From contig CAVVCH010000061.1 of assembly GCA_963746605.1 (NCBI GenBank), positions 134,441 to 198,440 of the forward strand: a stretch of DNA of 64,000 nucleotides, read 5' to 3'. The notes under the pieces were generated by a model that saw only the letters and a list, made by a program, of their open reading frames with translations, was not told the origin of the DNA and did no database searches. A program made the translations under genes and the position numbers. Numbering within the stretch: position 1 is the stretch's first letter; each line of letters starts with the position of its first letter. Positions 4,370-37,032 of the stretch are shown here, piece by piece. This DNA is from an uncultured delta proteobacterium. GTDB lineage: Bacteria; Desulfobacterota; RBG-13-43-22.

Positions 4370-5681
4370 ATGAAACACAAAACACCCCTGCTGGATCAGT
4401 TAGAAAGCGGGCCCTGGCCAAGCTTTGTTTCGGACATCAAGCGGGAGGCCGAATCGCGGGCCAAGAACGAAAAAGGTGTGGATTTCCAGATCCCGGTCGA
4501 GGTTTGTGATGACATTCTGGGGGTGATGGAACTGACCTATGAACAAAAACGGACCCATTGGAAACACGGCGGAATCGTGGGTGTTTTCGGGTACGGCGGC
4601 GGGGTCATCGGCCGTTATTGCGACCAGCCGGAAATGTTTCCCGGCGTGGCCCATTTCCACACCATCCGGGTCAATCAACCGGGCGGGAAATATTATACCA
4701 CCGAATTCCTGAAGAAATTGTGTGATCTTTGGGATAAAAGGGGCAGCGGGCTGACCAACATGCACGGCTCCACCGGTGACATCATCCTCTTAGGGACCTA
4801 TACGCCACCAACTGGAAGAGGTTTTTTATGAGTTGACCCATGACTTCAACCAGGACCTGGGCGGGTCGGGCTCCAACCTGCGGACGCCTGCGGATTGCTT
4901 AGGCATGTCCCGCTGCGAATATGCCTGCTACGATACCATGGCCTTATGTTATGATCTGACCAATGAATACCAGGACTTCCTCCATCGGCCGGCCTTCCCT
5001 TACAAATTCAAATTCAAATTCGACGGCTGCCCCAACTGCTGTGTGGCTTCCATCGCTCGATCCGACATGTCTTTTATAGGAACGTGGCGGGATGACATCA
5101 AGGTCGACCAGGAAGCTGTCAAGGCCTATGTGGGCGGGGAGATTCCGGCCAATGCGGGGGCCTTCAAGGGAAGGGACTGGGGGGCTTTCGATATCAACGC
5201 CGAGGTCATCGACCTCTGCCCCACCAAATGCATGTCCTGGGACGGGAAGAAGCTGGGGATCTATACCCCGGAATGCACCCGCTGCATGCACTGCATCAAC
5301 GTCATGCCCAAGGCCCTGCGGGTGGGTGACGACCGCGGCGTGTCCATCCTGTTGGGCGCTAAAGCCCCTATTCTCGATGGCGCCCAGATGGGTTCCCTGG
5401 TGGTTCCTTTCATGAAAGTGGAGCCGCCCTATACGGAAATAAAAGAATTTATTGAGAAGGTCTGGGATTACTGGATGGAAGAAGGGAAAAACCGGGAACG
5501 CCTGGGCGAACTGATGAAACGTCAGGGTTTCCAGAAACTCTTGGAAGCCACCGGTCTGGAACCGATTCCGCAAATGGTCAAGGAACCCCGGACCAATCCC
5601 TATATTTTCTGGCGGGCGGATGAAGTTCCCGGCGGATTTGAACGCGACATCAAAGAATATCGCAAGCACCATCTGCGTTAG
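4370..5681 (+). pseudogene. dsrA: dissimilatory sulfite reductase alpha subunit DsrA, split by an apparent +1 frameshift near 4806-4811 into ORFs 4370..4831 and 4833..5681. This may be a sequencing artefact.
   Basis: N-terminus [56 protein letters not shown] and siroheme/Fe-S Cys motifs are hallmark DsrA. The 153+282 aa total equals normal DsrA length. Removing one C from ccaccaact restores ...[20 protein letters not shown]... Confidence 0.85.
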
Positions 5682-5694
5682 GAGGTGAGCACTC

Positions 5695-6837
5695 ATGCCA
5701 TACGATCCAAAAGAACCTTTAAAAGACAGAATCACCGACCTGGGACCGAGACATTACGAGGAGTTTCTTCCTCCGGTCATTAAAAACAACTACGGAAAAT
5801 GGGCCTACCATGAAATTCTGGAGCCCGGTATACTGGTGCACGTGGCTGAAAACGGTGACAAGGTTTTCACCGTTCGCGTCGGCGGTGCCCGGCTGATGAG
5901 CATCTCCCATATCCGGGAGCTCTGCGAAGTAGCCGACATACACTGCGACGGCCATCTGCGCTTCACCACCCGGAACAACATCGAGTTCATGGTGGATGAC
6001 CTGGCCAAGGTCGAACCCCTGAAGAAAGACCTGCTCGGTCGCAAACAGGCCGGCGGGGGCTTCAAGTTCCCTATCGGCGGGACTGGCGCCGGGATCACCA
6101 ATATCGTTCACACCCAGGGCTGGATCCATTGCCACACTCCGGCTACCGACGCCTCCGGCGTCGTCAAGGCGGTCATGGACGAATTGTTCGACGAATTCAC
6201 CAGCATGCGCATGCCGGCCCAGGTGCGGATTTCCCTGGCCTGCTGTCTCAATATGTGCGGCGCCGTGCACTGCTCGGACATCGCTATTTTGGGCTATCAT
6301 CGCAAACCGCCCATGGTCGATTGGGAAGTAATCGACAAGGTCTGTGAGATTCCTTTGGCCATCGCCGCCTGTCCGACGGCCGCCATTAAACCGGGCAAGT
6401 ACACCCGGGATGACGGGACCACGGCCCAGGGCGTCCAGGTGAATGCGGACCGCTGCATGTTTTGCGGCAACTGCTACACCATGTGCCCGGCCCTGCCCCT
6501 GGCCGACGACGTGGGCGACGGCATCGTGATCATGGCCGGCGGCAAAGTCTCCAACCGGATCAACCCGCCCAAGTTCTCCAAGGTGGTGGTGGCCTTTTTG
6601 CCCAATACCCCGCCCCGCTGGAAAGAAACCTCCGATTGCGTCAAGAACCTGGTGGAAGTATACGCCAAGGACGCCCGGAAATACGAGCGGGTGGGCGATT
6701 GGGCCGAGCGGATCGGGTGGGAGCGCTTCTTCGAGAAGACCGGCCTGCCTTTTACGCATCACCTGATCGACGACTTCCGTGATCCGGCCTATTATACGTG
6801 GCGACAGACCACGCAATATCGTTTTACTAATTCCTAA
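5695..6837 (+). CDS. dsrB: dissimilatory sulfite reductase beta subunit DsrB
   Basis: 380 aa with Cys clusters ([29 protein letters not shown]) typical of DsrB. Strong RBS GGAGGTG. Position directly after dsrA. Confidence 0.95.
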
Positions 6838-6856
6838 ACCAACCCCTTACCTATTT

Positions 6857-6899
6857 TCCCCTCCTCCTTCCCCCCGCCGGGGAATGGAGGAGGAGGGGA
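6857..6899 (+). terminator. strong GC hairpin (TCCCCTCCTCCTTCC...GGAGGAGGGGA) between dsrB and dsrD; no U-tract, so possibly an mRNA-stabilising or attenuating stem
   Basis: 11-bp perfect inverted repeat with an extension, read directly from the sequence. Confidence 0.3.
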
Positions 6900-6962
6900 A
6901 AGACAGCCATCGGAGAGCGCGTCTCATTCCATAGGGCTGAACACCAAGAAACGAGGGAAATC

Positions 6963-7199
6963 ATGGACGACGCCGAAGCCAAGAAATTTATCGTGGCGGA
7001 ACTGGAGAAAAAGAAGGGCAAGTCGAAATTCTATCTGAAGGATTTTTATGCTATGGTGCCCGACCGAAAAGCCAGGGAGGTGAACAAACTGGTCAACAAT
7101 ATGGTGCAGGAAGGGATTCTGGAGTACTGGTCCAGCGGCAGCACCACCATGTATGGGATCAAGGGCGCCGGCAAACAGCAGTCCGCCGAAGGGGAGTAA
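6963..7199 (+). CDS. dsrD: DsrD, the small winged-helix protein of dsr operons
   Basis: 78 aa, SKFYLKDFYAMVPDRKAREVNKLVNNMVQEGILEYWSSGSTTMYGIKG matches the conserved DsrD core. It sits after dsrB. Confidence 0.85.
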   Translation: MDDAEAKKFIVAELEKKKGKSKFYLKDFYAMVPDRKAREVNKLVNNMVQEGILEYWSSGSTTMYGIKGAGKQQSAEGE

Positions 7200-7255
7200 T
7201 CGGCTCTTTCTGAATACCTGGAATCCGTTGATCGGTTTTTTTTGCAGTTAACGCA

Positions 7256-8662
7256 ATGAATTCGCCCCGATTGGTGATGGCCGCCCTCCGCGGTGGAGCC
7301 GGGAAGACCGTGCTTACCATGGGCCTCCTGGCCGCCTGGCACGATCGGGGGATTAAGGTGGTACCCTTTAAGAAGGGTCCGGATTATATCGACGCCGGAT
7401 GGCTGGCCAAAGCGGCCGGACACCCCTGCTATAATCTGGACCCTTTTTTAATGGGGAAAAAGACCCTGCTGTCATCGTTCAAGAAAAGGTTCCTTGAGGG
7501 GGACCTGGCCTTGATTGAGGGCAACCGGGGAATCTTTGATGGGATCGATGCCCAGGGGACCTACAGCACCGCCCAGTTGGCCAAGTGGCTCCGGGTTCCG
7601 GTGGTCCTGATCCTCGACTGCACCAAGGCCACCCGGACCGTGGCGGCTATGGTTCTAGGTTGCCTGGCCTTTGATCCCGACCTGCCCCTAAAGGGGCTGA
7701 TTCTAAACCACATCGTTCGCAGTCGTCACGAGGCGGTTATCCGAAAGACCATCGAGCAGACCTGTGACCTGCCCATCCTGGGGGTGATTCCTCGGATGGG
7801 CGCCGGGCGTCTGCCCGAACGGCATCTGGGTCTGGTGCCTTTTCAGGAGCACCCCGAAGTGGAGCAAACCGTCCGCTTCACCCGGGAGATGGCTGAAAAG
7901 TACCTGGATTTGGCCGGACTCCAGGCCCTGGCCGGCCAGGCCCCGCCGCTGCCGGGGGGGGTGCCCCTTCCGACCGCTAAGGATAAGGGGAGGACGAAAA
8001 GACGTCCCCGGGTTGGAGTGATCCAGGATACGGCGTTTCAGTTCTATTACCCGGAGAACCTGGAAGCTCTGGAAGCCGCCGGGGCCGAGCTGGTTTTTCT
8101 GAATGCCCTTTCCGGGCAATTCCCCGGGAACCTGGAGGCCCTGTACATCGGCGGCGGTTTTCCGGAAACCCAGGCCGCCGACCTTTCCCAAAACAAGGGT
8201 TTTCGAAAAGGCCTGGCCGAGGCCATTGAGGCCGGTCTTCCGGTTTATGCCGAGTGCGGCGGTTTGATGTACCTGGGAAAAACCCTGATTTACCGGGGTG
8301 ACGCCTACCCCATGGTGGGCGTTTTTCCGTTTACCTTTTCACTGGAAAGGAAACCGCAAGGGCACGGCTACACCCGGATCAAGGTGGTCGAAGCCAATCC
8401 CTACTTCCCGCTGGGGACTGTCTTAAAGGGGCATGAATTCCACTATTCCCGGGTGATCGAGGGTGATTTGGAGGTCTGGAAAATGGCTTTTCAGATGAAC
8501 AAGGGGGAAGGATTGGATGGCCGGCGGGATGGCTTGATCTACAAAAATACCCTGGCCACCTATACCCATCTTCATGCCCTGGGAAGCCCGGAATGGGCTC
8601 GGGGTCTGGTTGCCAGGGCCGGGGGGCGCCCGGTTGGAAAAAGTCCTGCGGCCCTGGAATAA
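7256..8662 (+). CDS. dsrN: DsrN, a cobyrinic acid a,c-diamide synthase (CbiA/CobB) family amidase (siroheme amidation)
   Basis: N-terminal P-loop AAxxGAGKT, a CobQ/CbiA-type glutamine amidotransferase domain at the C-terminus (YAECGGLMYLG), and position after dsrD. Confidence 0.8.
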   Translation: MNSPRLVMAALRGGAGKTVLTMGLLAAWHDRGIKVVPFKKGPDYIDAGWLAKAAGHPCYNLDPFLMGKKTLLSSFKKRFLEGDLALIEGNRGIFDGIDAQGTYSTAQLAKWLRVPVVLILDCTKATRTVAAMVLGCLAFDPDLPLKGLILNHIVRSRHEAVIRKTIEQTCDLPILGVIPRMGAGRLPERHLGLVPFQEHPEVEQTVRFTREMAEKYLDLAGLQALAGQAPPLPGGVPLPTAKDKGRTKRRPRVGVIQDTAFQFYYPENLEALEAAGAELVFLNALSGQFPGNLEALYIGGGFPETQAADLSQNKGFRKGLAEAIEAGLPVYAECGGLMYLGKTLIYRGDAYPMVGVFPFTFSLERKPQGHGYTRIKVVEANPYFPLGTVLKGHEFHYSRVIEGDLEVWKMAFQMNKGEGLDGRRDGLIYKNTLATYTHLHALGSPEWARGLVARAGGRPVGKSPAALE

Positions 8663-8774
8663 GCATAAAATTCCTTGAAAAATTGTGGATTTTCCCTTGA
8701 CATTTTATTTAAAATAAGTCATGTATGGGCCACAAAACTTATTAACCATTAACATTATTGAGGAGGATGAAGGC

Positions 8775-9092
8775 ATGGCAACAATTGCATTTAAAGGACA
8801 TGACTTTAGTGTAGATGAAGACGGATTCATCGACGATTTCAATAGCTGGAACCGTGACTGGGTGGATTATGTAAAGGAATCCGAGGGGATCAAAGAACTG
8901 ACCGAAGAACACTGGAAGATCATCAATATCCTCCAGGATTATTACAAGAAAAATGGGATCGCCCCCATGGTTCGAATCCTTTCCAAGGTGACCGGATTCA
9001 AACTGAAATACATCTATGAACTGTTTCCTTCCGGACCGGGCAAAGGGGCCTGTAAGATGGCGGGGCTGCCCAAGCCTACCGGTTGCGTTTAA
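8775..9092 (+). CDS. dsrC: DsrC (TusE-like sulfur-transfer protein)
   Basis: C-terminal CKMAGLPKPTGCV penultimate-Cys arm is diagnostic of DsrC. Strong RBS GAGGAGGATGAAGGC before ATG 8775. 105 aa. Confidence 0.9.
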   Translation: MATIAFKGHDFSVDEDGFIDDFNSWNRDWVDYVKESEGIKELTEEHWKIINILQDYYKKNGIAPMVRILSKVTGFKLKYIYELFPSGPGKGACKMAGLPKPTGCV

Positions 9093-9104
9093 ACATTAGA
9101 ATCA

Positions 9105-9169
9105 CGGGGCAGGTGACGAGTAGCGGTTATCATACAAGGCTTTGAATTTCTGCCCCGGTACTCGTCACC
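9105..9169 (+). promoter_or_regulatory. structured dsrC-dsrT intergenic element with two crossing inverted repeats (CGGGGCAG/CTGCCCCG and GGTGACGAGTA/TACTCGTCACC)
   Basis: Segments A-B ... A'-B' are read directly. The two possible stems are mutually exclusive, which would suit an attenuator or processing site. Confidence 0.3.
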
Positions 9170-9175
9170 CCGCCC

Positions 9176-9718
9176 ATGGATCTGAACACATTTTTTAAAG
9201 AAAAAAAGTCTGCTTTCCTAAAACGGTGGTTCAACCTCATCGTGGAAACCTACCCCGATGAGACCACGCGGTTTCTGAAATACCAAAAAGATCGCTTTGC
9301 CAATCCGGTCGGTTATGCCTTGACGCAATCCCTCGACCGGTTATATGAAGAGGTTGTTTCCGGAGTGGACCCCGAGCGGGCCGCTCCGGCCTTGGATCAG
9401 ATTATACGGATTCGAGCCATACAAAACTTTTCCCCCTCCCAGGCGGTCGCCTTCGTCTTTTTTTTGAAAACCGTCATCCGCGATGCCCTGGAGGAGGAGA
9501 TTAGACAATCCGGGATCAAGGAAGAACTGCTGATCATCGAGACCCGCATCGACCAGTTGGCGCTGTTGGCCTTTGATCAGTACATGGCTTGCCGGGAAAA
9601 GCTCTATGACCTCAAGGCCAACGAACTTCGCCGGCAGACCCATCGACTGTTGCAGCGGGCCAAAATTATCGGGGAGCCCCCCGCCTCCGACCTGAACTCC
9701 GAAGAAGGTAACGTTTGA
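9176..9718 (+). CDS. dsrT: DsrT-like protein (RsbRD-N-like conserved protein preceding dsrMKJOP); assignment tentative
   Basis: 180-aa soluble ORF in the position dsrT occupies in dsrTMKJOP clusters of Desulfobacterota and Chlorobi. Called from context and size, not from a motif. Confidence 0.45.
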   Translation: MDLNTFFKEKKSAFLKRWFNLIVETYPDETTRFLKYQKDRFANPVGYALTQSLDRLYEEVVSGVDPERAAPALDQIIRIRAIQNFSPSQAVAFVFFLKTVIRDALEEEIRQSGIKEELLIIETRIDQLALLAFDQYMACREKLYDLKANELRRQTHRLLQRAKIIGEPPASDLNSEEGNV

Positions 9719-9748
9719 ACGGTTTAAAATAAAGGAGAGGGTAGGTCC

Positions 9749-10777: not shown

Positions 10778-10779
10778 TC

Positions 10780-12417
10780 ATGGCCTTCAAGAATATTCCC
10801 AAGCCCAATGAATTAGCCCAGATCGGCCATAATCCCCCCTCGATGAAGGGCTGGATGGATGTCCCAGCGGATATCCGGCCGGGGATGTTTTGTTACGCCG
10901 GTCAGCCTAAGAATTTGGAGGCGGTGGGCCTGCCCAATCCGCGGAAATGGGCTCCGACCGATGACGACTGGCAACTGCCCGACAACTGGAAAGAGATATT
11001 CCTGGAGGGCATGCGGGAACGGTTGAAGAAGTATCGCACCTTCCAGATCTTCATGGACATCTGCGTCCGCTGCGGGGCCTGCGCGGACAAGTGCCATTTT
11101 TTCATCGGCTCCGGGGATCCTAAAAACATGCCGGTCCTGCGGGCCGAGCTGTTGCGCTCTATCTACCGGCGGGAGTTCACCGTCGCCGGAAAGCTGCTGG
11201 GAAAGATGGCCGGTGCCCGGGAGCTGACTCCCGAGGTATTGAAGGAAATCTGGCATTACATGTTCCAGTGTACGGAGTGCCGCCGCTGTTCCCTCTTCTG
11301 CCCCTACGGCATCGACACCGCTGAAATCACGATTATCGGCCGGGAATTGCTCAACCTGCTGGGGTTGAACATCGACTGGATCGCCGGGCCCGTGGCCAAC
11401 TGTTACCGGAAAGGAAATCACCTGGGCATCGAGCCCCATGCCTTTAAAGACATGATCGAGTTTTTCCTCGATGAGGTCGAGGGCGTTTGTGGGATCCGGC
11501 CGGAGCCGACCTTTAACCGCAAAGGGGCTGAAATCCTGTTCGTCACCCCTTCGGGTGACGTCTTTGCCGACCCCGGGACTTATACCGCCATGGGCTACCT
11601 GATGCTCTTCCATCAATTGGGACTGGATTACACCTGGAGCACCTATGCCTCCGAAGGCGGGAACTTCGGGTTTTTCACCTCCAATGAAATGGCCCAGCGG
11701 TTGAATTATAAGATCTACGCCGAGGCCAAACGCCTGGGGGTCAAATGGATCCTGGGCGGCGAGTGCGGCCACATGTGGCGCCTGATCCATCAATACATGG
11801 ACACCTGGAACGGGCCGGCGGATTTCCTGGAGGAACCGGTGTCGCCCATCACCGGGACTAAATTTGAAAATGCCAAGGCCACCAAGATGGTCCATTTGGT
11901 GGAGTTCACCGCCGACCTGATCCGGAACGGCAAATTGAAGCTGGATCCCAGCCGCAACGACAACCTGCGGGTCACGTTTCATGACTCCTGCAACACCGCC
12001 CGAGGCATGGGATTTTTCGAAGAGCCTCGATATGTCATCAAACACGTCTGTAATAATTTTTTTGAAATGCCGGAAAACACGATCCGGGAGCAGACCTTCT
12101 GCTGCGGCAGCGGCTCCGGGCTGAACGCCGGTGAGGATATGGAGCTGCGGATGCGGGGCGGGTTTCCCCGGGCCAATGCCGTCCGCTTCGTTCACGATAG
12201 GTTTGGGGTCAATATGCTGGCTAATATCTGCGCCATCGACCGGGCAGCCTTATCCACTTCCATGGAATATTGGGTTCCGGAGGTAGGGGTCACCGGGGTT
12301 CACGAGATGGTGGCCAATGCCCTGATCATGGACGGCGAAGGGGAGCGGACCACCGATCTGCGCGGGGAACCCCTGCCTGGATTCGAGGAAAAGGAGGAGG
12401 GCGAAGAAGATGTATGA
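10780..12417 (+). CDS. dsrK: DsrK, HdrD-like Fe-S catalytic subunit with CCG domains
   Basis: 545 aa with CVRCGACADKC, CTECRRCSLFCP and C-terminal CCG-type Cys motifs (TFHDSCNTARG, TFCCGSGSG). Confidence 0.9.
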   Translation: MAFKNIPKPNELAQIGHNPPSMKGWMDVPADIRPGMFCYAGQPKNLEAVGLPNPRKWAPTDDDWQLPDNWKEIFLEGMRERLKKYRTFQIFMDICVRCGACADKCHFFIGSGDPKNMPVLRAELLRSIYRREFTVAGKLLGKMAGARELTPEVLKEIWHYMFQCTECRRCSLFCPYGIDTAEITIIGRELLNLLGLNIDWIAGPVANCYRKGNHLGIEPHAFKDMIEFFLDEVEGVCGIRPEPTFNRKGAEILFVTPSGDVFADPGTYTAMGYLMLFHQLGLDYTWSTYASEGGNFGFFTSNEMAQRLNYKIYAEAKRLGVKWILGGECGHMWRLIHQYMDTWNGPADFLEEPVSPITGTKFENAKATKMVHLVEFTADLIRNGKLKLDPSRNDNLRVTFHDSCNTARGMGFFEEPRYVIKHVCNNFFEMPENTIREQTFCCGSGSGLNAGEDMELRMRGGFPRANAVRFVHDRFGVNMLANICAIDRAALSTSMEYWVPEVGVTGVHEMVANALIMDGEGERTTDLRGEPLPGFEEKEEGEEDV

Positions 12418-12806
12418 CAGCGGCAAGATCATCACGGGGATAGTCATTTTCGTCATTCTGGTGACTTTTCCGATCTGGTACAATCTGGGTCGGGCCACGC
12501 CGCCACCGGATCCCAAAATTGATACCCCGGTCATTCAGGCGCTGGCGGAAAAGAAGTGTATCGAACCGAAAAGCCAGATGAAATACACCCATATGAAGAT
12601 TCTGGATGAATGGCGCCATACGGTCGTGCGGACCCAGGAGCGGATTTATACGGCCGCCGACGGGAAGACAGTATGATATGAGCCTTCAGAATACCTGTAT
12701 GAAATGCCATTCCAACAAAAGCCAGTTCTGCGATCAGTGCCATAATTATTTGCAGGTCAAACCCTATTGCTGGGATTGCCACATCGCGCCAAAGGAGAAA
12801 AAGTAA
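12410..12806 (+). pseudogene. dsrJ: DsrJ tri-haem cytochrome c, interrupted by an apparent +1 frameshift near 12670-12676 (ORFs 12410..12676 and 12606..12806); possibly a sequencing artefact
   Basis: The N-terminal TM anchor plus ...TAADGKTV are in frame 2. Three CxxCH motifs (CMKCH, CDQCH, CWDCH) follow in frame 0. Combined length ~132 aa fits DsrJ. Confidence 0.8.
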
Positions 12807-13582: not shown

Positions 13583-13589
13583 GGTGGTT

Positions 13590-14759: not shown

Positions 14760-14774
14760 TACATCTGCTTGAAA

Positions 14775-26606: not shown

Positions 26607-26644
26607 AAAACGGCAGAAACGATGACGGTACAGGGAGAAGGCTT

Positions 26645-27442: not shown

Positions 27443-27515
27443 GCCTAAAGGACTTTATTCCGGATTCCAATTCCAGAATTCCAACCCTACACTATCTTGA
27501 TAAGGAGGACCTTTC

Positions 27516-27810
27516 ATGGACGATGTGTATAAAAACAATGCCCCCCGGGAATTCCCAACCCTCAAGCCCAACCGGAAATCAAGGAGAAAAAAGCCGTCAG
27601 GCTGGAGACGATGAAAGTCTCCGAGCTTAAGGAAACAGTGTCCCGCTGGAAGAAGGATATCCTGGACCGTATTCAGTTTCTGAAGGAGAATTATGACCAG
27701 GCTCTACAGGACAAGGGAGCGTTGACTTGGAGGTGGATAAGTGGAAGGCCGAACTGACCGCTTCGGAATTCCGGGTCCAGGAACTGGAAAGACAATCGTG
27801 GCCGAGGTGA
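27516..27810 (+). pseudogene. decayed coiled-coil ORF readable only across three frames (…EIKEKKAVRLETMKVSELKETVSRWKKDILDRIQFLKENYDQALQDKGALT / LEVDKWKAELTASEFRVQELERQSWPR)
   Basis: A protein-like heptad sequence is split by at least two frameshifts. No intact ORF longer than 50 aa. Confidence 0.3.
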
Positions 27811-27939
27811 TGGAAGACCTATAAAGTAATTTACTCAAGGGAGGTAACGCCGGCGCCTTGCTTCAAGGAAGTAGTACCGGCGCTTTGCAGAGATTACGAT
27901 TGCAGGCGGCGTTCCAGAATGGGGTGCAGGATTATCGAT

Positions 27940-28040
27940 TCTTACACCCTCCGTCCAGCGCCGAATTCGGTGATGTCAGGGACGACCACGTCGCTGTGCA
28001 GGGAGCGGCTAATCCGCTATGGTTGGTCTTGGTCGATTCC
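27940..28040 (-). pseudogene. acyl-CoA dehydrogenase gene fragment (~35 codons), paralogous to the N-terminal region of the ACAD at 29219..30361, with an internal frameshift
   Basis: ~80% nucleotide identity to 30061-30130. Encodes ...TKTNHSGLAAP then, in another frame, LHSDVVVPDITEFG, against ACAD TKTNHSGLAAPLHSDVVVPYLTEFG. Confidence 0.5.
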
Positions 28041-28554
28041 GGTGGATGGAAAGCCAGGGGTAAGGGGAGGTTGAAAATGGAATGTTTATCCTGATACTTA
28101 AGGTGGTTCGTCTGGCAATATAAGCCCCCATCAATATTATTGTGGTGCCGACGGCTGAGCCAACCAGGCCATTGGACCGCGATGGTGCGCACATGGGCCT
28201 TGGCCCGGCACGCTCGGGCCATGGTCAACCGATTGACGTCTCGTCCAAAGACAGAGGAGGTGCGGATGATTACCGTATTACAGGATACTGCAAAGCCAAA
28301 CTCGGACGAAGGCAGATCTATGAGCACCGCGAAGAAGACGAGGTACAGGATTGGCTCGGAAGACGCGGCTTCAAGACGGGACCAGTAGATTGGCACTGGA
28401 AGATACAGCTGAATGGATTCAAGAGTTCAGCGATCTATGGAACCGAGAATCAGGGGCTAGGTCCTGAAAGAGGAGCGCAATGGCAACAAGCCAATCCGGC
28501 CGACTCCGACCAATATTGATGATTTTCTCGTTGGATTTCAGAAAGAATGAACCG

Positions 28555-28897
28555 ATGAAGATTATCTCAAACCGTGCCGCCATCATCGTCAGGGCGAAAG
28601 CTCCTTTTGTTGAGTGGGTTCAAAGCGCCGATGCCGACAGCTCCCATATCACTACCGAGGAAGTCAACGAAGACCCTAACGTATACTTGATCTACGATCC
28701 AAAGAAGGAAGGCGAGATCGACATCGATTGATCGCGAAGAACTATCGTGAGATTTTCGAAGAGGAATTGAATAGCTGGTTCACAGACGAGTCCTGTGGCC
28801 AGAAGAGGGACCTTAAAACATTCCGGCAATGGTTTCAGGTTGATTTCCATGGCATGGTGGTAGATCTCAGCGAAGAAGACTTCTACACCGAAGAATG
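28555..28897 (+). pseudogene. hypothetical ~113-aa ORF interrupted by a frameshift/stop near 28728-28735 (MKIISNRAAIIVRAKAPFVEW...GEIDID | IAKNYREIFEEELNSWFTDESCGQ...)
   Basis: Two consecutive protein-like segments in different frames. No family recognised. Confidence 0.3.
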
Positions 28898-28930
28898 AAA
28901 AAATCGAGCCGCTTGACTACCTTCGCCATA

Positions 28931-29213
28931 TCAAGGTGGAGGTAGAGTCGGCGCCCTGCCTTGACTACCTAAAAATTTTCCTGTGTCTTTAAAAAAGTCG
29001 CTGATATAGGAGATTTTTCCCTCCTCGAACTCCATCAGGGTCACCCCCTCATTCTCGTAGGGTTCCCCGCGTCGGTTTTTCCCTCGATTGCTCCAATGGA
29101 CCGCTCCCCGGTTCCCCTGAACAATGGTCCGGTGAACGGTGAAGACCAACTCCGGGTATTGGCGGAAGAGGATCTGGAGTGAAAAAGTCAGAAATGAGTT
29201 TTTCGGCATTCAC
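28931..29213 (-). pseudogene. SnoaL-like/NTF2-fold protein remnant whose N-terminal segment (GTG start, NAEKLISDFFTPD) is in a different frame from the body; short and likely disrupted
   Basis: C-terminal ...GEPYENEGVTLMEFEEGKISYISDFFKDTG matches the SnoaL-like C-terminus. A frame change near 29170. Starts 5 nt after the ACAD stop. Confidence 0.35.
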
Positions 29214-29218
29214 AGCGG

Positions 29219-30361
29219 CTACAATCCCATCATCTTGGCCACGATGGTCTTCATGATCTCGTTGGTGCCGGCAAAGATGGACATGACCCGCACGTCCCGC
29301 CAGGCGCGGGCAATGGGGTATTCCTCGCAGTAGCCGTAACCGCCGTGGAGCTGGAGGCATTCGTCGGCTACGCGTCGGGCCATTTCGGTGGTCCAATATT
29401 TGGCCATGGAGACCTCGGTGACCACATTTTTTCCCTCCAGATGGTCGGCGATCAGTTTGTCCAGGAAGGTGCGCCCCAGCTTGACCTCGGTGGCCATCTC
29501 CACGATCTTGAACTGGTTGACCTGAAACTTGGAGATCGGTCTGCCGAAGGCGGTGCGTTCCTTCGTATACTTGATGGTTAAATCCAACATATGTTCCGCC
29601 CCGGCGACGGCGGCGATGGCGCACATCAGCCGTTCCTGCTGGAGCTTCTGCATCAGCATGATAAAGCCGGTCCCCTTAAGGCCCAATCGATTGCCTTTGG
29701 GGATGCGACAGTCGGTGAAATAGAGCTCGGCCGTATCCTGGCTGTGCCAGCCGATTTTTTTTATTTTTTTGCCTTTTTCAAAACCGGGGGTCCCGGCCTC
29801 CACCAGGAAGAGGTCGATGGCCTGGTAGGGTTCGCTGACCTCGGGGTCCCGGGCGGCCAGAACCAGCAGGTCGCAGTTGATTCCGTTGCTGATAAAGGTT
29901 TTCTGGCCGTTGAGGATCAATTCGTCCCCCGCTTCCACCGCCGTGGTCCGGATGGCCGCCAGATCGCTTCCCGTGTTGGGCTCGGTCATGGCGATGGCGG
30001 TGATGAGGTCCCCGGAACAGCAGCCGGGCAGGTATTTCCTTTTCATTTCTTCCGTGCCGAATTCGGTAAGGTAAGGGACGACCACATCACTGTGCAAGGG
30101 GGCGGCCAAGCCACTGTGGTTGGTCTTGGTCAATTCCTCACAGACGATCACGGAATAGAGAAAGTCGGCCCCGGACCCGCCGTATTCCTCCGGGACCATG
30201 GGGCAGAGAAAACCCTGGTCGCCCATCTTCTTCCAGGCGCTTCGGGGGACGATCCCCGCTTCTTCCCATTCGTCAATATAGGGAATCACCTCTTTTTCAA
30301 AAAACTTCCGTAAGGCGTCGCGAAAGATGCGGTGTTCTTCGGTATAGTGTAAAATGTCCAT
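29219..30361 (-). CDS. acyl-CoA dehydrogenase
   Basis: 380 aa with ...TEPNTGSDLAAIRTTA..., ...ISNG... and a C-terminal ...HGGYGYCEEYPIARAWRDVRVMSIFAGTNEIM (catalytic Glu in the YGY..E context). Confidence 0.85.
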   Translation of the reverse strand: MDILHYTEEHRIFRDALRKFFEKEVIPYIDEWEEAGIVPRSAWKKMGDQGFLCPMVPEEYGGSGADFLYSVIVCEELTKTNHSGLAAPLHSDVVVPYLTEFGTEEMKRKYLPGCCSGDLITAIAMTEPNTGSDLAAIRTTAVEAGDELILNGQKTFISNGINCDLLVLAARDPEVSEPYQAIDLFLVEAGTPGFEKGKKIKKIGWHSQDTAELYFTDCRIPKGNRLGLKGTGFIMLMQKLQQERLMCAIAAVAGAEHMLDLTIKYTKERTAFGRPISKFQVNQFKIVEMATEVKLGRTFLDKLIADHLEGKNVVTEVSMAKYWTTEMARRVADECLQLHGGYGYCEEYPIARAWRDVRVMSIFAGTNEIMKTIVAKMMGL

Positions 30362-30513
30362 AGTCCATTTTCCTTTTTGTATTTACGGGTAATTTCTCGT
30401 CATCCCCGAAGGTCTTTATCGGGGATCCACTGTTCCTTAAGAAAAGCCTGGATTCCCGCTCAGAAGCGTTGCGGGAATGACGCTTTATGAGGTGGTATCT
30501 ATTGTGAAACCAT

Positions 30514-30867
30514 TTATAAAATCGGGACCGGATAGCGGTTCCCGTCCCGGTCATAAAAAATCACTCTCCCGGTTCTTTTCCAGAGGGTTTCGTCCATGAA
30601 ACAATAGAAGGCCTTGATTTCCCCCGGTTCGATGCGCAGGTCTCCCGAGGGCACGAGGTGGTCAAACCTCCGGATCCCTCCGGAAGTTTCCAGGTCGAAA
30701 TGGCTGGGCACAACCAATCGGGGCCAGAGCCCTGGTTGGTAAGATGGATTTCCAGGTTCTGGTCGAACATCTTCAGCCCGCAGCAGGTTTTGAAGCTCAA
30801 GATGTCTTCGGCCGAAGAGTTCATGATGAAACGGATTTCGAGCATGTGGTATTTTTCTCAGCAGCAA
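30514..30867 (-). pseudogene. DUF35 (zinc-ribbon/OB-fold, BbsA/ChsH2-C-like) thiolase-partner protein, N- and C-terminal parts in different frames (ATG 30845 frame, then the 30867..30514 frame)
   Basis: C-terminal LVVPSHFDLETSGGIRRFDHLVPSGDLRIEPGEIKAFY resembles the DUF35 OB-fold. ...SFKTCCGLKMFDQ sits in the other frame. A terminator-like hairpin (30522-30548) and T-rich tract overlap the stop. Confidence 0.45.
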
Positions 30868-30869
30868 TT

Positions 30870-32078
30870 TTACTGTATCTTTCCCACAATGGCGATGCTG
30901 CAGACGTTCATGAAGGGCACCCCGCCCAGATTGTGGGTCAGGCCGAAGCGGGGATTTTCGATTTGCCTTTCTCCGGCCCTTCCATGAAGCTGGAGATACA
31001 TTTCATAGAGCATGCGCAGGCCCGAGGCCCCGATGGGATGGCCGAAGCATTTCAGCCCACCATCCACCTGACAGGGAATCCCTCCCCCGTCCCGATTGTA
31101 GAAACCGTCCAAGGAATCCCGCACGGCCCGGCCCCGTTCCGAAATATGCAGGTCCTCGTAGGTGACCAGTTCGGTGATGGAGAAGCAGTCGTGGAGTTCC
31201 ATCATGCTGATCTCCCGGCGTGGGTCGGTGATCCCGGCTTCCTGATAGGCCCGCCGGCTGCAGACGTCGGTGGTCACAAAGTGGTCCCCGTCCCATTGAT
31301 TAAAGCCCATTTCGGCCCCGCCGCTTAAGGCCAGTTGCAGGGCCTTGACGGTGACAAAATCCTTTCGTCCCATCTCCTTGGCCTTTTCCACGGTGGTGAC
31401 GATGGCGCAGGCCGCTCCGTCGCTCACCCCGCAACAGTCGAACAGCCCCAGAGGATGGGCGATGATCGGGGCGGCCATGATCTGTTCCACGGTCACGGCC
31501 TTACGCAAGTGGGCCTTAGGGTTGAGGACTCCGTTGGCGTGGCTCTTGGCCGAAACCTGGGCCAGCGCGCGTTTGAGTTCCTGGTCCGGAATGCGGTATT
31601 TGGCCGCGTAAGCGCTGGCCAGTTGGGCAAAGGCCCCGGGGGCAGAGATGTTGGGGAACCAGAGCCAGTTCAAAGAGCCCAGCCCGGAACCCGGATTGGG
31701 CAGCCCGCCGTAGCCCGTGTCCTTGAGCTTCTCCACACCCATGGCCAGACAGATATCGTAGGCCCCGGAGGCCACGGCATAGACCGCCCCCCGAAAAGAC
31801 TCGGTTCCGCTGGCACAAAAGTTTTCTGTCCGGGTGGCAGGTATCAAGGGCAGGCGGAGGGTCATGGTAAGGGGAAGGGCGCTTTTGCCCACGTTGATCT
31901 CCTCCATGCAGGTGCCCAGCCAGGCGGCCTCGATATCATCGGGCACGATTCCGGAATCCTCCAGACACTCGGCGAAAGCCTCCACCATCAGTTCTTCGGC
32001 CCCCACATCCCAGCGCTCGCCAAAGCGGGTGCAGCCCATGCCGAGGATGGCGACTTTATCTTTGATACCGGTAGCCAT
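30870..32078 (-). CDS. thiolase, SCP-x/nonspecific lipid-transfer-protein type (acetyl-CoA C-acyltransferase)
   Basis: 402 aa with nucleophile context ENFCASGTESF and C-terminal CFGHPIGASGLRM with catalytic His. No second C-terminal Cys, as in SCP-x-type thiolases. Confidence 0.85.
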   Translation of the reverse strand: MATGIKDKVAILGMGCTRFGERWDVGAEELMVEAFAECLEDSGIVPDDIEAAWLGTCMEEINVGKSALPLTMTLRLPLIPATRTENFCASGTESFRGAVYAVASGAYDICLAMGVEKLKDTGYGGLPNPGSGLGSLNWLWFPNISAPGAFAQLASAYAAKYRIPDQELKRALAQVSAKSHANGVLNPKAHLRKAVTVEQIMAAPIIAHPLGLFDCCGVSDGAACAIVTTVEKAKEMGRKDFVTVKALQLALSGGAEMGFNQWDGDHFVTTDVCSRRAYQEAGITDPRREISMMELHDCFSITELVTYEDLHISERGRAVRDSLDGFYNRDGGGIPCQVDGGLKCFGHPIGASGLRMLYEMYLQLHGRAGERQIENPRFGLTHNLGGVPFMNVCSIAIVGKIQ

Positions 32079-32089
32079 ACAGCTCTCCT

Positions 32090-33430
32090 TTAGAATTTAA
32101 ACAGCTTTTCTATCAGTTGGGATTTCATCAGATCCCCTTCGATTTTCAGTTTTCCGCTAGTGAAGGCCTGCATGGCCGGCAATTGACCGGTGATCAGCCC
32201 CAGAAAGTCGGCATCGGCCATGTGGATGGTGGTGGTCGGCTTTGCATGAAGCCCCGGGCCTACGGTGCAGGAGGCCTCTTTGATCACCGCCTGCCAATCC
32301 CCGCCCTCGGGCCCGGAGATCCGGAACTGGAAGACCACGTCCACCCCGGCCGCTTTTTCGGCCTGAAAGGCCTCCGGCATCCGCTCGAACACGGACCGAA
32401 CCGTAGGTCCGGAGGGTGAGGATTTGGCCGCCTCCGGCTCCCTTTGCCCGCCGGTCAGCATTTCTCCCAGGGCCGCGGTGGCATTGTAAAATTCCTTTCC
32501 TCCTACGAGGGTGTTGATGGCCGTCCAATTTTGGTGAACCTCTTCCGGGGTAGGGACATTCCCTCCTTCACCGATCAGGATTCCCGGCCCGGAAACGATC
32601 GCCGCCTTGTTGAAATACCCCGCCCCGGCGTTGAAGACCTGGCCGGTCTCGGCGCAGGCGGCGGAGCAGAGATAGATGACCAAGGGGGCCGACGAATTCG
32701 GGTTTAAGTCTTTCAAAGAGATCGGGGGGCAGGATGTCTTCGGTCAGGCGAGTGGCGGCGATAGGGGCCACGGTGTTGACCTTGATGTTGTATTTCTCGC
32801 CCTCCAGTTTCAAGGTGTTCATCAAGCCCACCAACCCCAGTTTGGCTGCCGAATAGTTGGCCTGTCCGAAATTGCCGAACAAACCGGCGGCCGAGGTGGT
32901 CAGGACGATTCGGCCGTATTGCTGTTCCCGCATCTGCCGGAGCGCCGGCCGGGTGACATAATAGGCCCCATCCAGATGGACGGAGAGGACCTGATTCCAA
33001 TCCTCGGAGTCCATCTTGAGCAGGGTCTTGTCCCGGAGGATTCCGGCGTTGTTGATCAGGATATCCACGCGGCCAAAGGTCTCCAGGGCTTTCTCGACAA
33101 TGGCTTCGCCGCCTGCGGGAGTGGATACGGAATCGTAACTGACCACGGCTTCGCCGCCCAGGGCCTTGATTTCTTCAACCACCCTGTCAGCCGGACCGGT
33201 AGAACCAGTGCCGGAACCGTCCCGGGAGCCGCCCAGATCGTTCACCACCACTTTCGCTCCGCGCTTGGCCAAGTCCAGGGCATAGGTCCGACCCAGACCG
33301 GCCCCGGCCCCGGTGACGATCGCCACCTGACCGTCAAATCGGATTTCGGCCTTTTTTTCCTCTGTTGTCGGCGGCTTGACCGGCAGAGGCACGGCTTTCC
33401 AGAAGTAGCCGGAGAACCCGCGGTCCTTAT
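32090..33430 (-). repeat. paralogous SDR+SCP2 module; partner at ~34926..36210 in the adjacent gene (~85-90% amino-acid identity)
   Basis: Near-identical stretches, e.g. RVDILINNAGILRDKTLLKM...GRIVLTTSAAGLFGNFGQANYSAAKLGLVGLMNTLKLEGEKYNIKVN.VAPIAATRLTEDILPPDLF.RLKPE, occur in both proteins. Confidence 0.6.
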
Positions 33431-34826
33431 CGGTGTACCGCTTCCGGAAAGAGAGCCTGACCGGCTGGCCGACCCAGACTTCGGCCAGTTCGCAATCGGT
33501 AAAATCGGCCATGAACCGCCCCCCGTCATCAAATTGGATCATGCCGTAGACTGCCGGCGGGTCGACAGAAACCGTCAACAGGTCTCCGGTAAAGGTCTTG
33601 ATAAAGGCCGATTTTTCGGCAAACTCGTACTCTTCCTGGGTATGGAATTTCCGGCAGTCCGGGTTGACGCAGATATCCATTTTTGGAAACTGAGGGGTGC
33701 CGCAGGCCGTACAGCGGCCGCCCACCAGGCCGAGGATCATCTGCCGTTTCCGATAGAGGACGGTCATGGCCGTCTGCGTGGGGGCCTCGGCCCTGATCCC
33801 CATCTCGGTCTGGATCAGGTCTCGGAACTTGAGGAATTTGGGATATTGGTCGATCGTCTTTTTGTTCTTCAGAGACCCTTCAATCCCCACCCGAGGGGCT
33901 AGATTTAGGATATGCTCGGTCACCCGGAAATACAGCGCGTCGCAGCCCTGTCCGAAACCGGCCAGCAGGATCCGATCTCCAGGCTTGGCCTGCTCCAGGG
34001 CTTGGGTAAACAGGACCAGGGGATGGGCGGCGCCGGTTTCCCCGCAGACCTCGTGGAGGTTGTCCTGAACTTTTTCCGGAGCAGCCCCCAGTTTCTTGGC
34101 GATGTTGCGGTGTTCGGCCTTGAAGAAGCAGGGGAAAACAAGCTTATCCACGTCGTCCATGGTGATGGACAGTTTTTCAGGAGACCGTTTACCGCCGCGG
34201 GGATGATCTTGGCCATATCCTTCATCCCGGACCCAGCGCTCTTCCCACATGTAATCGTATTTGTTTTGGGAGCCGCGGTAGTGATCGATAAAATCCAGAG
34301 AGAGGCTATAAGAACCCAGGAATTCAGCAATTACGCTGCTATTGCCGACCAGGAGTGAGGCGGCCCCGTCGCCGAACCACATCTCATAAAAATAGGCGGC
34401 CTTGGTCTCCCGCTTGTCGGCCGCGGTGACCAGGATGCTTTGGGGGACGCCTTCCCGAAGGGAGTTCAAGGCGGTGATCAGCGCGCTGGTGCCGGAACGA
34501 AGGGAGGCGGTAACGTCCTGGGTCAGCAGGTCATCCCGAAGGTTCAGGGCCGTTTTGACAATAGCGGCGTTGAGGCGGTCGGCAAAGGGCAGCGTGGTGG
34601 AGCACAGGTAGAGGGCCTCCATCGCCGATTTATCCGCTCCCTTCAGGCAGTCCTGCGAGGCGGCAACGGCCATGGTCAGGCTGTCTTCATCCCAGTTGCA
34701 GAAAGAACGCTCACCCTGGGCGACCATGACGATGGCCGGGGCAAACCAGCCCATTTCCTGAAAGATGCTCATGCGGTTTAGACGGAGCCGGGGAAGGTAG
34801 CCGCCGTAGGATACGATGCCGATCAT
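32090..34826 (-). pseudogene. four-domain fusion (HMG-CoA-synthase-like + DUF35 + short-chain dehydrogenase + SCP2 sterol-carrier), interrupted by a +1 frameshift at the G5 run 32683-32687 (ORFs 32568..34826 and 32090..32716)
   Basis: N-terminal MIGIVSYGGYLPRLRL is the HMGCS start. CTACGT...NPDCRKF...VWVGQPVRLSFRK is DUF35. TGAGAGLG...YSAAK is SDR. The C-terminus continues in the other frame as PLVIYLCSAACAETG...GKLKIEGDLMKSQLIEKLFKF (SCP2). Deleting one G restores EFVGPLVIYLC, matching the paralog RLKPEYVTPLVLYLC. Confidence 0.75.
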
Positions 34827-34925
34827 GGGACCTCCTTAAAATTCAAATCCGAAATTCGACGCACGAAACTCGAAACAAAAAACAATATTCAAAATTCAAA
34901 TGACCGAAACAACTTCACCTCCCGA

Positions 34926-37032
34926 TCAGAACTTAAAAAGTTTTTCTATGAGCTGGGATTTCATCAGGTCGCCTTCAATTTTCAGTTTGCCCGAGGTGTA
35001 GGCCTGCATGGCCGGCAGTTTTCCGGCCATCAAATCCAGGAAATCTTCGATCCGACATTTTAATGAGGGTCGTCGGTTTTTCGTGGAGCCCCGGGGTGGT
35101 AGTACAGGTCGCGTCTTTGATGGCGGTAAACCAATCTCCCCCGCCCGCTCCGGAAATCCGGAATTGAAAAACCACGTCCACCCCGGCGGCCTTGTCGGCC
35201 TGAAAGGCCCGGGGCATCTCATCAAAAACCGACCGAACGGTGGCCCCGGGGGCCTCGACCGGCGCCGCCTCGGTTGGGGAGGGGGGGCCGGTCAATAGGA
35301 CGCCCAAGGCCTCGGTGGCATTGTAAAATTCCCGGGCCCCGGTCATCCGGAGAATGTCCGGCAGGCGGGCGGAAAGGCTCTCGGGAGAAGGGATCTGGTG
35401 CCCGTCGCTGAGCATTACCCCGGGACCGGAAAGTACGGCGGCCCGATTGAAAAAACCCATCCCGGCATTATAGACCGCGCCGCTCACCGGGCATTGTTCG
35501 GCGCAGAGGTAGAGGACCAGCGGGGTTACGTATTCGGGTTTGAGCCGGGCGAAAAGATCGGGGGGCAGGATGTCCTCGGTCAGACGGGTGGCGGCGATGG
35601 GGGCCACGGCGTTGACCTTGATGTTGTATTTTTCGCCCTCCAGTTTCAACGTGTTCATCAAGCCCACTAACCCCAGCTTGGCCGCCGAATAGTTGGCCTG
35701 CCCGAAATTGCCGAACAGACCGGCCGCCGAGGTGGTCAGGACAATTCTTCCGTACCCCTGTTCCCTCATCCTTTGGAAGGCTGCCCGGGTTACGTAGAAG
35801 GCCCCGTCCAGATGAACGGCCCGGACCTGTTCCCAATCCGCTTTCTCCATTTTAAGCAGGGTCTTGTCGCGCAGGATGCCGGCATTATTGATCAGGATAT
35901 CCACGCGGCCAAAGGCTTCGACGGCCCGCCGGGTGATGGCTTCCCCGCCTTCCGGGGTCGATACGGAATCGTAGCTGGCCACGGCCTCACCGCCCAGGGC
36001 CATAATTTCCGCAACCACCCGGTCCGCCGGACCGGCCGATCCGGTCCCGGATCCATCCCGAGCGCCGCCCAGGTCATTGACCACCACCCGTGCGCCTCGC
36101 CGGGCCAGTTCCAGGGCGTAGGCCCGGCCTAACCCGGCCCCGGCGCCGGTGACGATGGCCACCCGGCCGTCCAGGCGAATCTCCATCTTTGGGGTCTCCC
36201 CATATTCGAAGATTCCCTGGTCAATGACCACCTCGCCTGTCTCGGCGTTGATGACCCGCCAGAGGGCCTTCCCTTCGTCCACCCGCCAGATCTGGGTTTT
36301 GATGGCGTTCCCGGGATAAAGCGGGCTGCGGAAACGATTGGCCATCCGTCGTACCTTCTCCGGGGCGCCCGGGACCAGTTGCCGGATCAAGGCCCGGGAA
36401 GCATAGCCGTGGGTGCAAAGGCCGTGCATGATGGGTCGGGTAAAACCGGCCGTCTTGGCAAATTCCAAATCCACGTGCAGGGGGAAGATGTCCCCGGAAA
36501 GACGGTAAATCAGCGGCTGATCGACCGGGGGGGTAGCCGGCACCTCAAAATCCGGAGGTCGTTCCGGGAACGAAATGGCATTCTTAGGGGCATCTTCCCC
36601 GCCAAAGCCCCCGTCCAAACGTGCCAAGACGGTAACGATGCTGGTGAAAAGTTTTCGGCCGCCTTCATTCCGGGTGTCAAACTCGGCCACGATCAGCGCT
36701 CCCTTGTCGGGGCCTTTGTCGTAATAATGGGTGATGGCCCCCTCGGTTATCAGTTTTCCCTCCGAAGGGATGGGCTGGTGAAAGATCAACTCCTGCCCGG
36801 CGTGAAGAATTCCCGCCAGGTTGACATTGCTGATGGAGGCCAACTCCGGCATGAAATCGTACAGCGTCACAATGCCAAAGCTCGGCAAGACCCTGAGGTC
36901 CTTTTCGTAACAGTAGTCTAGATCGGAAAAACCCGCACCCACGCCCAGGGCATAGAGGACCGTGTCCTTCCAGGTATAGTCCTTGGAAAAGGGGCCGATC
37001 TTTTTTCCAATGCTGTCCAAGTTAAGGGCCAT
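34926..37032 (-). pseudogene. MFE-2-like fusion (2x MaoC hot-dog hydratase + SDR + SCP2), C-terminal SCP2 end displaced by a 1-nt insertion near 35058 (ORFs 34975..37032 and 34926..35225)
   Basis: N-terminal YTWKDTVLYALGVGA is the hydratase-2 N-domain, then TGAGAGLG...YSAAK (SDR). The tail ...TLIKMSD then shifts to EDFLDLMAGKLPAMQAYTSGKLKIEGDLMKSQLIEKLFKF, identical in sequence to the paralog's C-terminus. Confidence 0.75.

Follow-up and report, generated by a model that had tools for sequence, protein, structure and literature searches.

The one- and two-base indels that disrupt reading frames in the stretch of DNA analysed here (64,000 nt, hereafter the window) are very probably consensus errors of a long-read-only metagenome-assembled contig, rather than mutations. 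Judging from comparisons with related sequences, the organism almost certainly carries intact dsrA, dsrJ, two large beta-oxidation fusion genes (genes A and B) and several affected small genes. If the lesions are assembly consensus errors, dsrA, dsrJ and both large genes are to be read as intact. An earlier note on this DNA had offered assembly artefact as one of two readings, and for the small indels this reading is supported: they are specific to this assembly, one edit suffices to repair each, the genes show no relaxed selection, and related long-read contigs carry other frameshifts.

Extent and distribution of the frame disruptions

Between 4.8 and 35.1 kb of the window, 8 genes carry at least 14 small indels among them, so that the earlier count of at least six disruptions is borne out and proves to be an undercount. 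With 8 of ~60 genes broken, the window lies well above the few per cent expected for a finished free-living genome. The features concerned are as follows.

4370..5681, plus strand: dsrA, with an extra G at 4804; split into ORFs of 153 and 282 aa
12410..12805, plus strand: dsrJ, with an extra G at 12667 (AAA read as AAGA); truncated at 88 aa
27513..27861, plus strand: 115-aa coiled-coil hypothetical gene; -1 (27556), -1 (27728), +2 (27798) and a nonsense codon near 27822
27862..28971, no strand: 1.1-kb variable island, missing from contigs L170, L171 and L174
27960-28040, inside the 1.1-kb variable island: ACAD fragment of 81 nt
28555..28898, plus strand: 114-aa conserved hypothetical gene; +2 (AT at 28723-28724), then -1 and -2 some 80 nt on
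28931..29212, minus strand: SnoaL-like gene; 113 nt (~38 codons) missing from the N-terminal half
30519..30845, minus strand: small gene of 109-113 aa; +2 near 30712-30716
30858..30878, minus strand: junction lacking the 152-aa SnoaL_3-like gene of L170, with the thiolase C-terminus altered by 2 nt
32090..34826, minus strand: gene A; +1 at 32692, -1 near 34172 and +1 near 34213
34926..37032, minus strand: gene B (MFE-2 hydratase/MaoC, SDR and SCP2 domains); +1 at 35048
37054..64000, no strand: clean block with TetR, histidine kinase, tRNAs, two tuf copies, secE-nusG, rplKAJL, rpoBC, rpsLG, fusA and the start of the S10 operon

The lesions are unevenly spread, with 14 in ~33 kb versus none in ~27 kb (P ~2e-4 under a uniform rate). 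The earlier figure of roughly one indel per 10 kb, which tacitly presumes an even spread, is therefore off: the rate is ~1 per 2.3 kb across 4.3-37 kb and zero across 37-64 kb, and as many as ~7 errors are packed into 1.4 kb against 0 in 27 kb. Frame-breaking indels are also lacking from 15.5-27.4 kb, a 12-kb clean block of transport, housekeeping and other non-core genes. As previously described, rpoB, rpoC, fusA and both tuf copies are intact. Contig L081 matches the 37-64 kb block at 99.77% identity over 14,277 bp without gaps, and contig L170 is collinear with the window over 37-41.7 kb. Differences from same-species contigs amount to 0.4-1.0% at three lesion-bearing loci versus 0-3 per kb at 45-64 kb.

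Most indel sites lie outside long homopolymers; for R10.4 data of good coverage this is unusual and, as such, it counts against an artefact. Inspection by eye revealed no shared sequence motif around the sites. A pair of 2-nt gaps at 3332 and 3349, in a 392-aa hypothetical gene, was discarded as an alignment artefact, the protein being in one frame relative to contigs L001 and L088.

Comparison with same-species and sister-species contigs

Three same-species contigs served as comparators, namely L085 (99.0% identity) and L086 (99.6%) from JGI and L169 (99.0% over 5.7 kb) from ENA. Five single-base lesions were tested against them (gene A, three; dsrJ and gene B, one each), and all five were absent. 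For genes A and B and for the 27.5-31 kb locus the sister-species contig L170 was used in addition, while dsrA was compared with sister-species contigs L001, L084, L088 and L173 (the last from JGI) and with L003 (82% identity), none of them above 93% nucleotide identity. The matches listed in the genome-contig scan and in the metagenome-contig scan came from sister species only (up to 95% and 96% amino acid identity, respectively). The ParA-like sequence P0072 was dropped as a same-species comparator, being only 91% identical.

The dsr locus

The reported disruptions of dsrA and dsrJ are real features of the assembled sequence, each consisting of one extra G. The G at 4804 is absent from all five dsrA comparators, and removing it yields a protein of 436 aa that matches TIGR02064 over positions 1-402 of 402 (613 bits, cutoff 393). 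In the dsrJ region, the only indel between the window and either L085 or L086 is the G at 12667. Its removal restores 131 aa matching NF038038 over positions 1-121 of 121 (184 bits, cutoff 100), with a sequence identical to that of P0007. The inserted G corresponds to the sister-species allele (AAG) placed beside the same-species allele (AAA). The genes dsrB, D, N, C, T, M, K, O and P are intact and score above their family cutoffs.

Genes A and B

Gene A combines, according to Pfam, a KAS-III/HMGS-like domain with a ChsH2 zinc ribbon and OB fold, an SDR domain and SCP2. Minimal edits, three in gene A and one in gene B, give ORFs of 911 and 701 aa; as in dsrA and dsrJ, these are full-length and without other defect, and the C-terminal 80 residues of gene B match P0020. 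The earlier note had recognized both genes as disrupted, which holds, with single extra bases at 32692 and 35048. It had placed the gene A indel in a G5 run, which it is not: the extra base is an A at 32692, four bases outside the run (32684-32688), and the run is of equal length in the window, L169, L170 and L089. Overlooked until now was the +1/-1 pair near 34213 and 34172, which leaves 13 codons out of frame.

L169 and the window are separated by four indels (three in gene A, one in gene B), and in 4/4 the frame is broken in the window, in 0/4 in L169; L170 likewise has neither the gene A lesions nor the extra base of gene B. At the gene B site, contig L087 also has an extra base at the same position. 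Its recurrence in two assemblies would also be compatible with a real allele, or with basecalling that errs systematically, and to this extent counts against a consensus artefact.

Relative to L169, gene A shows 28 synonymous and 13 nonsynonymous differences besides its 3 indels. The dN/dS values against this same-species contig are 0.15 for gene A and 0.17 for gene B, and those against the sister-species L170 are 0.16 and 0.15, respectively. Since the short-term dN/dS equals the long-term value, selection on these genes does not appear to be relaxed.

The variable locus at 27.5-31 kb

The zone at 27.5-28.9 kb, earlier described as multi-frame decay, is indeed disrupted, but it is composed of two small conserved genes with several lesions each and the 81-nt ACAD fragment; an Rfam scan of the window returned five tRNAs only and nothing in this zone. 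Lesions in the 115-aa gene were judged against its intact counterpart in L170 and L171. The 114-aa gene has an intact JGI homologue, P0268, from which the corrected window protein differs by one residue outside the shifted patches, that is, 3 indel events versus one residue substitution. In natural decay the ratio is usually the opposite, with substitutions outnumbering indels.

The SnoaL-like gene had been taken to carry a one-base indel at 29.17 kb. Alignment to L170 and L174 revealed instead a 113-nt internal deletion, and of the 102 positions of PF12680 the window protein matches no more than 46-101 (41.9 bits), compared with 3-101 in the L170 homologue. In contigs L090-L093, a SnoaL gene downstream of ACAD was not found, synteny ending there; L170 and L174 resolved the point. 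The deletion is structural and probably real. It and the nonsense substitution of the 115-aa gene look more like genuine lesions, which counts against the artefact reading for these two.

The gene at 30.5-30.9 kb is disrupted as stated before, but the DUF35 label did not hold, given that the corrected protein has no Pfam match (PF01796 and PF12172 included) and that the DUF35/ChsH2 domains lie inside gene A. Its lesion is a 2-nt insertion rather than the deletion previously proposed, with the same effect on the frame, and intact homologues of 112-115 aa occur in L089, L170-L172 and L174. Of the 152-aa gene at the nearby junction, L170 has an intact copy, L174 one that is half deleted, and the window none. 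Beyond the one- and two-base indels, the only structural lesions are the 113-nt deletion in the SnoaL-like gene, the loss of the 152-aa gene and the 81-nt ACAD relic, all three of which probably represent ordinary, genuine gene loss at a variable locus.

Related long-read contigs and the likely source of the errors

In related long-read contigs, which bear 'contig_N' names (ENA ERZ25039459, ERZ25039487 and ERZ25039488), the breaks fall in other genes. In L082, rpoC is in 4 pieces and rplD in 2, while rplB, rplV and rpsC are shortened; in L087, tuf and genes A and B are broken; L088 has dsrA in 3 pieces and broken dsrM and dsrO; and L084 has four 1-nt deletions in kipI/kipA. The closest relative is L001, a MAG of the Microflora Danica catalogue, which is Nanopore-only and was built with Flye (min_read_cov_cutoff 8) and one round of Medaka (PMC12313526). 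According to its authors, low-coverage MAGs of this catalogue have reduced coding density (PMC12313526). For a near-finished consensus from Nanopore R10.4, ~40-fold coverage is needed (PMC9262707). By its relatives and its pattern of deposition (NCBI plus ENA), the contig analysed here probably also comes from Nanopore reads assembled with Flye and polished with Medaka.

The window resembles Nanopore-only assemblies and MAGs with indel frameshifts (the problem addressed by the IDEEL test; PMC9262707, PMC12313526) in that isolated 1-2 base indels split otherwise perfect ORFs, are missing from independent assemblies and are matched by different breaks in related long-read contigs. Unlike in those cases, however, its sites are strongly clustered and mostly outside long homopolymers, a pattern indicative of local strain heterogeneity, of paralogues or of low coverage and not of classic homopolymer error. 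The errors appear to sit where the assembled population is heterogeneous, namely in a strain-divergent patch of gene A, at the gene A/B paralogues and in the 1.1-kb island. At such places, the consensus may have been drawn from mixed or few reads, and at some SNPs it seems to output both alleles, as an insertion. The clustering of lesions at strain differences, paralogues and a variable island thus suggests a mixed-strain or low-coverage consensus. In ERZ25039488, two contigs (contig_55330 and contig_82423) cover the gene A/B locus.

A haploid polisher run on mixed haplotypes can produce consensus artefacts at heterozygous or polymorphic sites. Similarly, several insertions in the window are compatible with both alleles of a SNP having been written out, or with an out-of-register join of haplotypes, as in dsrJ (AAA/AAG giving AAGA), in gene A (34213 and 34172) and in gene B (C/G giving CG, in two assemblies). 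The +1/-1 pair of gene A falls in a SNP-dense patch, where the window is L169-like on one side and of the L170 type on the other, the two being joined out of register. At 35048, both the window and the divergent L087 read 'CG', whereas C is found in L169 and G would be expected for the L087 haplotype. Yet this signature differs from the known artefact in its strength: under a strict test, the inserted base equals the neighbouring allele in relatives at 2/5 sites (P = 0.07, not significant), so the allele-mixing mechanism is only suggestive.

Weighing of alternative explanations

Genuine recent pseudogenisation, in which the strain would be losing sulfite reduction and a beta-oxidation-like pathway while its core genes stay under selection, seems unlikely to us. 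The sparing of rpoBC, fusA, tuf and the ribosomal protein genes would agree with it, as would the real-looking lesions at 27.5-29.2 kb (the 113-nt deletion, the nonsense codon and the ACAD relic) and the differing states of the 152-aa gene among the contigs, which speak for real erosion at that locus. However, all five tested lesions are missing from 99.0-99.6% identical contigs, and hence not fixed or shared in the lineage; dN/dS is not raised (0.15-0.17 within the species versus 0.15-0.16 against the sister species); most broken genes have one or few lesions and are otherwise perfect; and the remaining dsr genes are intact. The +1 and -1 of gene A, 40 nt apart, would be improbable as successive real events, and the genes broken in related long-read contigs are different ones, rpoC and tuf included. 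The earlier proposal that accessory and energy-metabolism genes decay while core genes are kept is likewise unsupported: the block at 15.5-27.4 kb, non-core genes included, is untouched, yet dsrA and dsrJ, needed for sulfite reduction, are hit. Reductive genome evolution with pseudogene accumulation is known from Mycobacterium leprae and recently host-restricted symbionts, among others. The window is like these genomes in having many disrupted genes in a short stretch and core information-processing genes spared, but its lesions are not common to 99% identical contigs, dN/dS has not changed, indels are numerous in relation to substitutions, and the breaks extend to the catalytic subunit of a respiratory enzyme whose operon partners are intact.

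Systematic basecalling errors at modified (methylated) motifs, instead of strain mixture or low coverage, are still less probable. In their favour, a second assembly (L087) has an extra base at the gene B site too, and in both the window and L169 this site coincides with a GATC, but L169 has the GATC and no error, the inferred true L087 sequence at this site (GATGAC) lacks it, and, by eye, the sites have no motif in common. Slightly less credible again is that the dsrA and dsrJ frameshifts, or the gene B base found in two assemblies, are real alleles of a natural subpopulation losing sulfite reduction and lipid/steroid-type beta-oxidation. Programmed recoding, by which ribosomal frameshifting or transcriptional slippage would keep the shifted genes functional, we regard as scarcely credible: each shift is small and the downstream frame is open and conserved, but neither slippery heptamers nor long runs were seen by eye at the sites, and homologues, same-species contigs included, encode the proteins in a single frame.

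Implications

The value of consensus error as an explanation is mainly cautionary. Errors in such MAGs are non-uniform, being concentrated in loci that vary between strains, in paralogues and in variable islands. Error-free ribosomal and rpo genes are therefore a poor guide to how reliable the accessory genes next to them are, and selective decay can be mimicked where core genes are intact and accessory genes broken. The two large beta-oxidation fusion genes would be mis-annotated as fragments, and likewise sulfate/sulfite respiration would be wrongly struck from the inferred metabolism of this organism if dsrA or dsrJ were called pseudogenes.

Inventory of frame disruptions

Alignment to four kinds of comparator showed that the frame disruptions listed in the earlier note are all present in the window, and six lines of evidence point to its small indels as artefacts; the observation is real in the sequence and biologically an artefact. 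The comparators comprised same-species contigs (L081, L085, L086 and L169; 99.0–99.8% identity), a Microflora Danica MAG of a sister species (L001; 86% nucleotide identity), a JGI contig in full synteny with the window (L170; 88–89% identity), and the further contigs L089 and L174. Against them, the window carries at least 14 small indel events in eight genes, all within 4.8–35.1 kb, and no small frame-breaking indels in 15.5–27.4 kb or 37–64 kb.

Small lesions in the window
4804, + strand: dsrA, extra G
12667, + strand: dsrJ, extra G
within 27.5–28.9 kb (the 'decay zone' of the earlier note): 115-aa coiled-coil gene, −1, −1, +2 and a nonsense codon
28555–28898, + strand, same zone: 114-aa conserved hypothetical gene, +2, −1, −2
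30519–30845, − strand: small gene of 113 aa, +2
32692, − strand: gene A (32090–34826), one extra base (A)
35048, − strand: gene B (34926–37032), one extra base

A second set of lesions in gene A, +1 near 34213 with −1 near 34172, had been overlooked; it shifts 13 codons, giving 'GQDHPRGGKRSPE' in the window versus 'AKIIPQAVNGLFQ' in relatives. Three earlier descriptions need correcting. No Pfam family matches the gene at 30.5–30.9 kb, which had been taken for DUF35; it is gene A that contains the zinc ribbon and OB domains of ChsH2/DUF35. The gene A indel assigned to a G5 homopolymer is the A at 32692, outside the run (32684–32688), which has equal length in the window, L169, L170 and L089. 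The supposed one-base indel in SnoaL is a 113-nt internal deletion (~38 codons lost), and the window protein spans only positions 46–101 of 102 in PF12680.

The window has a GC content of 55%, and its host is a sulfate-reducing member of the Desulfobacterota.

Gene blocks of the window
reductive dsr locus: dsrA, B, D, N, C, T and dsrMKJOP, complete
after the dsr locus: liv-type ABC transporter, kipI/kipA, yebC, ruvCAB, ParA-like gene, then a short variable region
− strand, beta-oxidation-like cluster: SnoaL, ACAD, 113-aa unknown gene, PRK06157-type thiolase, gene A, gene B, TetR
last block: tRNAs, tuf, secE-nusG, rplKAJL, rpoBC, rpsLG, fusA, second tuf, start of the S10 operon

Two dsr genes were missing from the earlier list: an intact dsrD (78 aa, 6956–7192) after dsrB, and a dsrT-like gene with an RsbRD_N domain (9176–9718) that precedes dsrMKJOP. 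Upstream of dsrA lies a 392-aa conserved hypothetical gene (2861–4039, + strand), for which no Pfam match was found; L001 and the long-read contig L088 carry it intact and in synteny. The two tuf copies (43073–44272 and 59724–60923) differ at 3 of 1200 nt. The 114-aa gene belongs to a family of small conserved hypothetical proteins (114–116 aa, 22 database homologues) with invariant motifs that include PFVEWV and KRDLKTF, and no Pfam family was found for these proteins.

Artefact versus real mutation

The disrupted genes dsrA, dsrJ, A and B are otherwise perfect. One edit yields a DsrA of 436 aa that matches TIGR02064 over 1–402 of 402, and one edit a DsrJ of 131 aa that matches NF038038 over 1–121 of 121 and equals the database homologue P0007 in sequence; with these two bases removed, all genes of the dsr locus exceed their NCBIfam cutoffs. 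Gene B becomes a 701-aa ORF after one edit and gene A a 911-aa ORF after three. The lesions are confined to this assembly. The extra G of dsrA is missing in L001, L003, L084, L088 and the JGI contig L173, and the dsrJ G is the sole indel difference between the window and the JGI contigs L085 and L086 (99.0% and 99.6% identical). The ENA contig L169 (99.0% over 5.7 kb) shows four indel differences, all of which disrupt genes A/B in the window and none of which does so in L169.

The earlier note had left open whether the assembly carries indels or accessory and energy-metabolism genes are decaying. Selection on genes A and B is not relaxed, dN/dS against L169 (0.15 for gene A, 0.17 for gene B) matching that against L170 (0.16 and 0.15); between the window and L169, gene A has 28 synonymous and 13 nonsynonymous differences and three indels. 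The 114-aa gene differs from its homologue P0268 by three indel events versus one residue substitution, a ratio that is wrong for decay. Pseudogene formation by reductive evolution failed its tests, the lesions not being common to relatives and relaxed selection being absent, as did programmed frameshifting, since homologues encode their proteins in a single frame. Nor does the pattern separate core from accessory genes, because dsrA and dsrJ carry lesions and a 12-kb block of genes for transport and housekeeping carries none.

The finding corresponds to the well-described indel-truncated genes of Nanopore-only assemblies, but differs in that the indels are clustered and mostly outside homopolymers. 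Related long-read contigs with 'contig_N' names (ENA ERZ25039459, ERZ25039487 and ERZ25039488) carry frameshifts in other genes.

Broken genes in related long-read contigs
L082: rpoC in four pieces, rplD in two; rplB, rplV and rpsC shortened
L084: kipI/kipA, four 1-nt deletions
L087: tuf, gene A and gene B broken
L088: dsrA in three pieces; dsrM and dsrO broken

The nearest relative among the matches listed comes from the long-read catalogue of Microflora Danica, a Nanopore-only resource for which Flye (min_read_cov_cutoff 8) was the assembler and one round of Medaka the polishing step, and whose authors report that coding density is lowered in MAGs with low coverage (PMC12313526); a near-finished consensus from R10.4 data requires ~40-fold coverage (PMC9262707). 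Such a published pipeline would explain errors of this kind, and the window presumably comes from it or from a similar one.

Structural differences

Three differences are structural: SnoaL has its internal deletion, a 152-aa gene is absent, and a fragment of an ACAD gene is present. They are unlikely to be consensus slips and may be real, indicating a variable locus where small accessory genes undergo ordinary turnover. L170 has the 152-aa gene intact (11202–11660), flanked by the thiolase and the 113-aa gene and with a weak, below-cutoff match to SnoaL_3; L174 retains only the C-terminal half (2654–2881), and the window (30858–30868) and L089 lack the gene, which looks like a real stepwise loss within the genus. 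The 81-nt ACAD fragment (27960–28040) lies inside a 1.1-kb variable segment and has one internal indel; it shares 85–86% identity with the full-length ACAD of the window and 89% with that of L170, and was left behind by an old rearrangement. Because 27862–28971 is missing from L170, L171 and L174, it represents a variable island; indel density is highest around it.

The beta-oxidation-like cluster (29219–37725, − strand; 3996–13847 in L170) is conserved, with synteny in L170, L171, L174 and L089. Gene B encodes an MFE-2 hydratase/MaoC, SDR and SCP2 protein, and gene A a KAS-III/HMGS-like, ChsH2 zinc ribbon and OB fold, SDR and SCP2 protein (both − strand). The substrate of the cluster may be steroid or branched-chain-like.

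Clustering and a possible mixed-strain origin

A uniform error rate is rejected, because 14 events fall in ~33 kb versus none in ~27 kb (P ~2e-4 by our own arithmetic). Local heterogeneity and lesions coincide: same-species divergence is 0.4–1.0% at the dsrJ and gene A/B loci and 0–3 per kb in 45–64 kb, and two contigs cover the gene A/B locus in sample ERZ25039488. One of them, contig_55330 (L087 and L081), is 99.8% identical to the window, gap-free, over 45–64 kb. At gene B and in the first tuf/tRNA region, its mismatches reach 236 per kb and 1-nt insertions are numerous; both places have paralogues, and the change to divergent, indel-rich sequence falls exactly there. The contig resembles a strain- or paralogue-chimeric consensus.

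A mixed-strain or low-coverage consensus is the likely cause of the clustered indels. Several insertions resemble what would arise if two alleles were written adjacently: the dsrJ site reads AAGA in the window, AAA in the same species and AAG in sister species, and the gene A pair resembles an out-of-register junction from an L169-type to an L170-type haplotype. Position 35048 reads 'CG' in the window and likewise in the divergent L087; L169 has C, and G would be expected in the L087 haplotype, a pattern that fits a C/G SNP in a mixed-strain consensus. L087 has its extra base and frame switch (about 3971–3991) at precisely the gene B position affected in the window, whereas L169 of the same sample has neither, and the base may also be a real allele or a systematic error. 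Because a strict two-allele signature test was positive for only two of five insertions (P = 0.07), we infer this cause rather than assert it. In practice, the affected genes should be read as intact, and pseudogene calls in this MAG deserve distrust.
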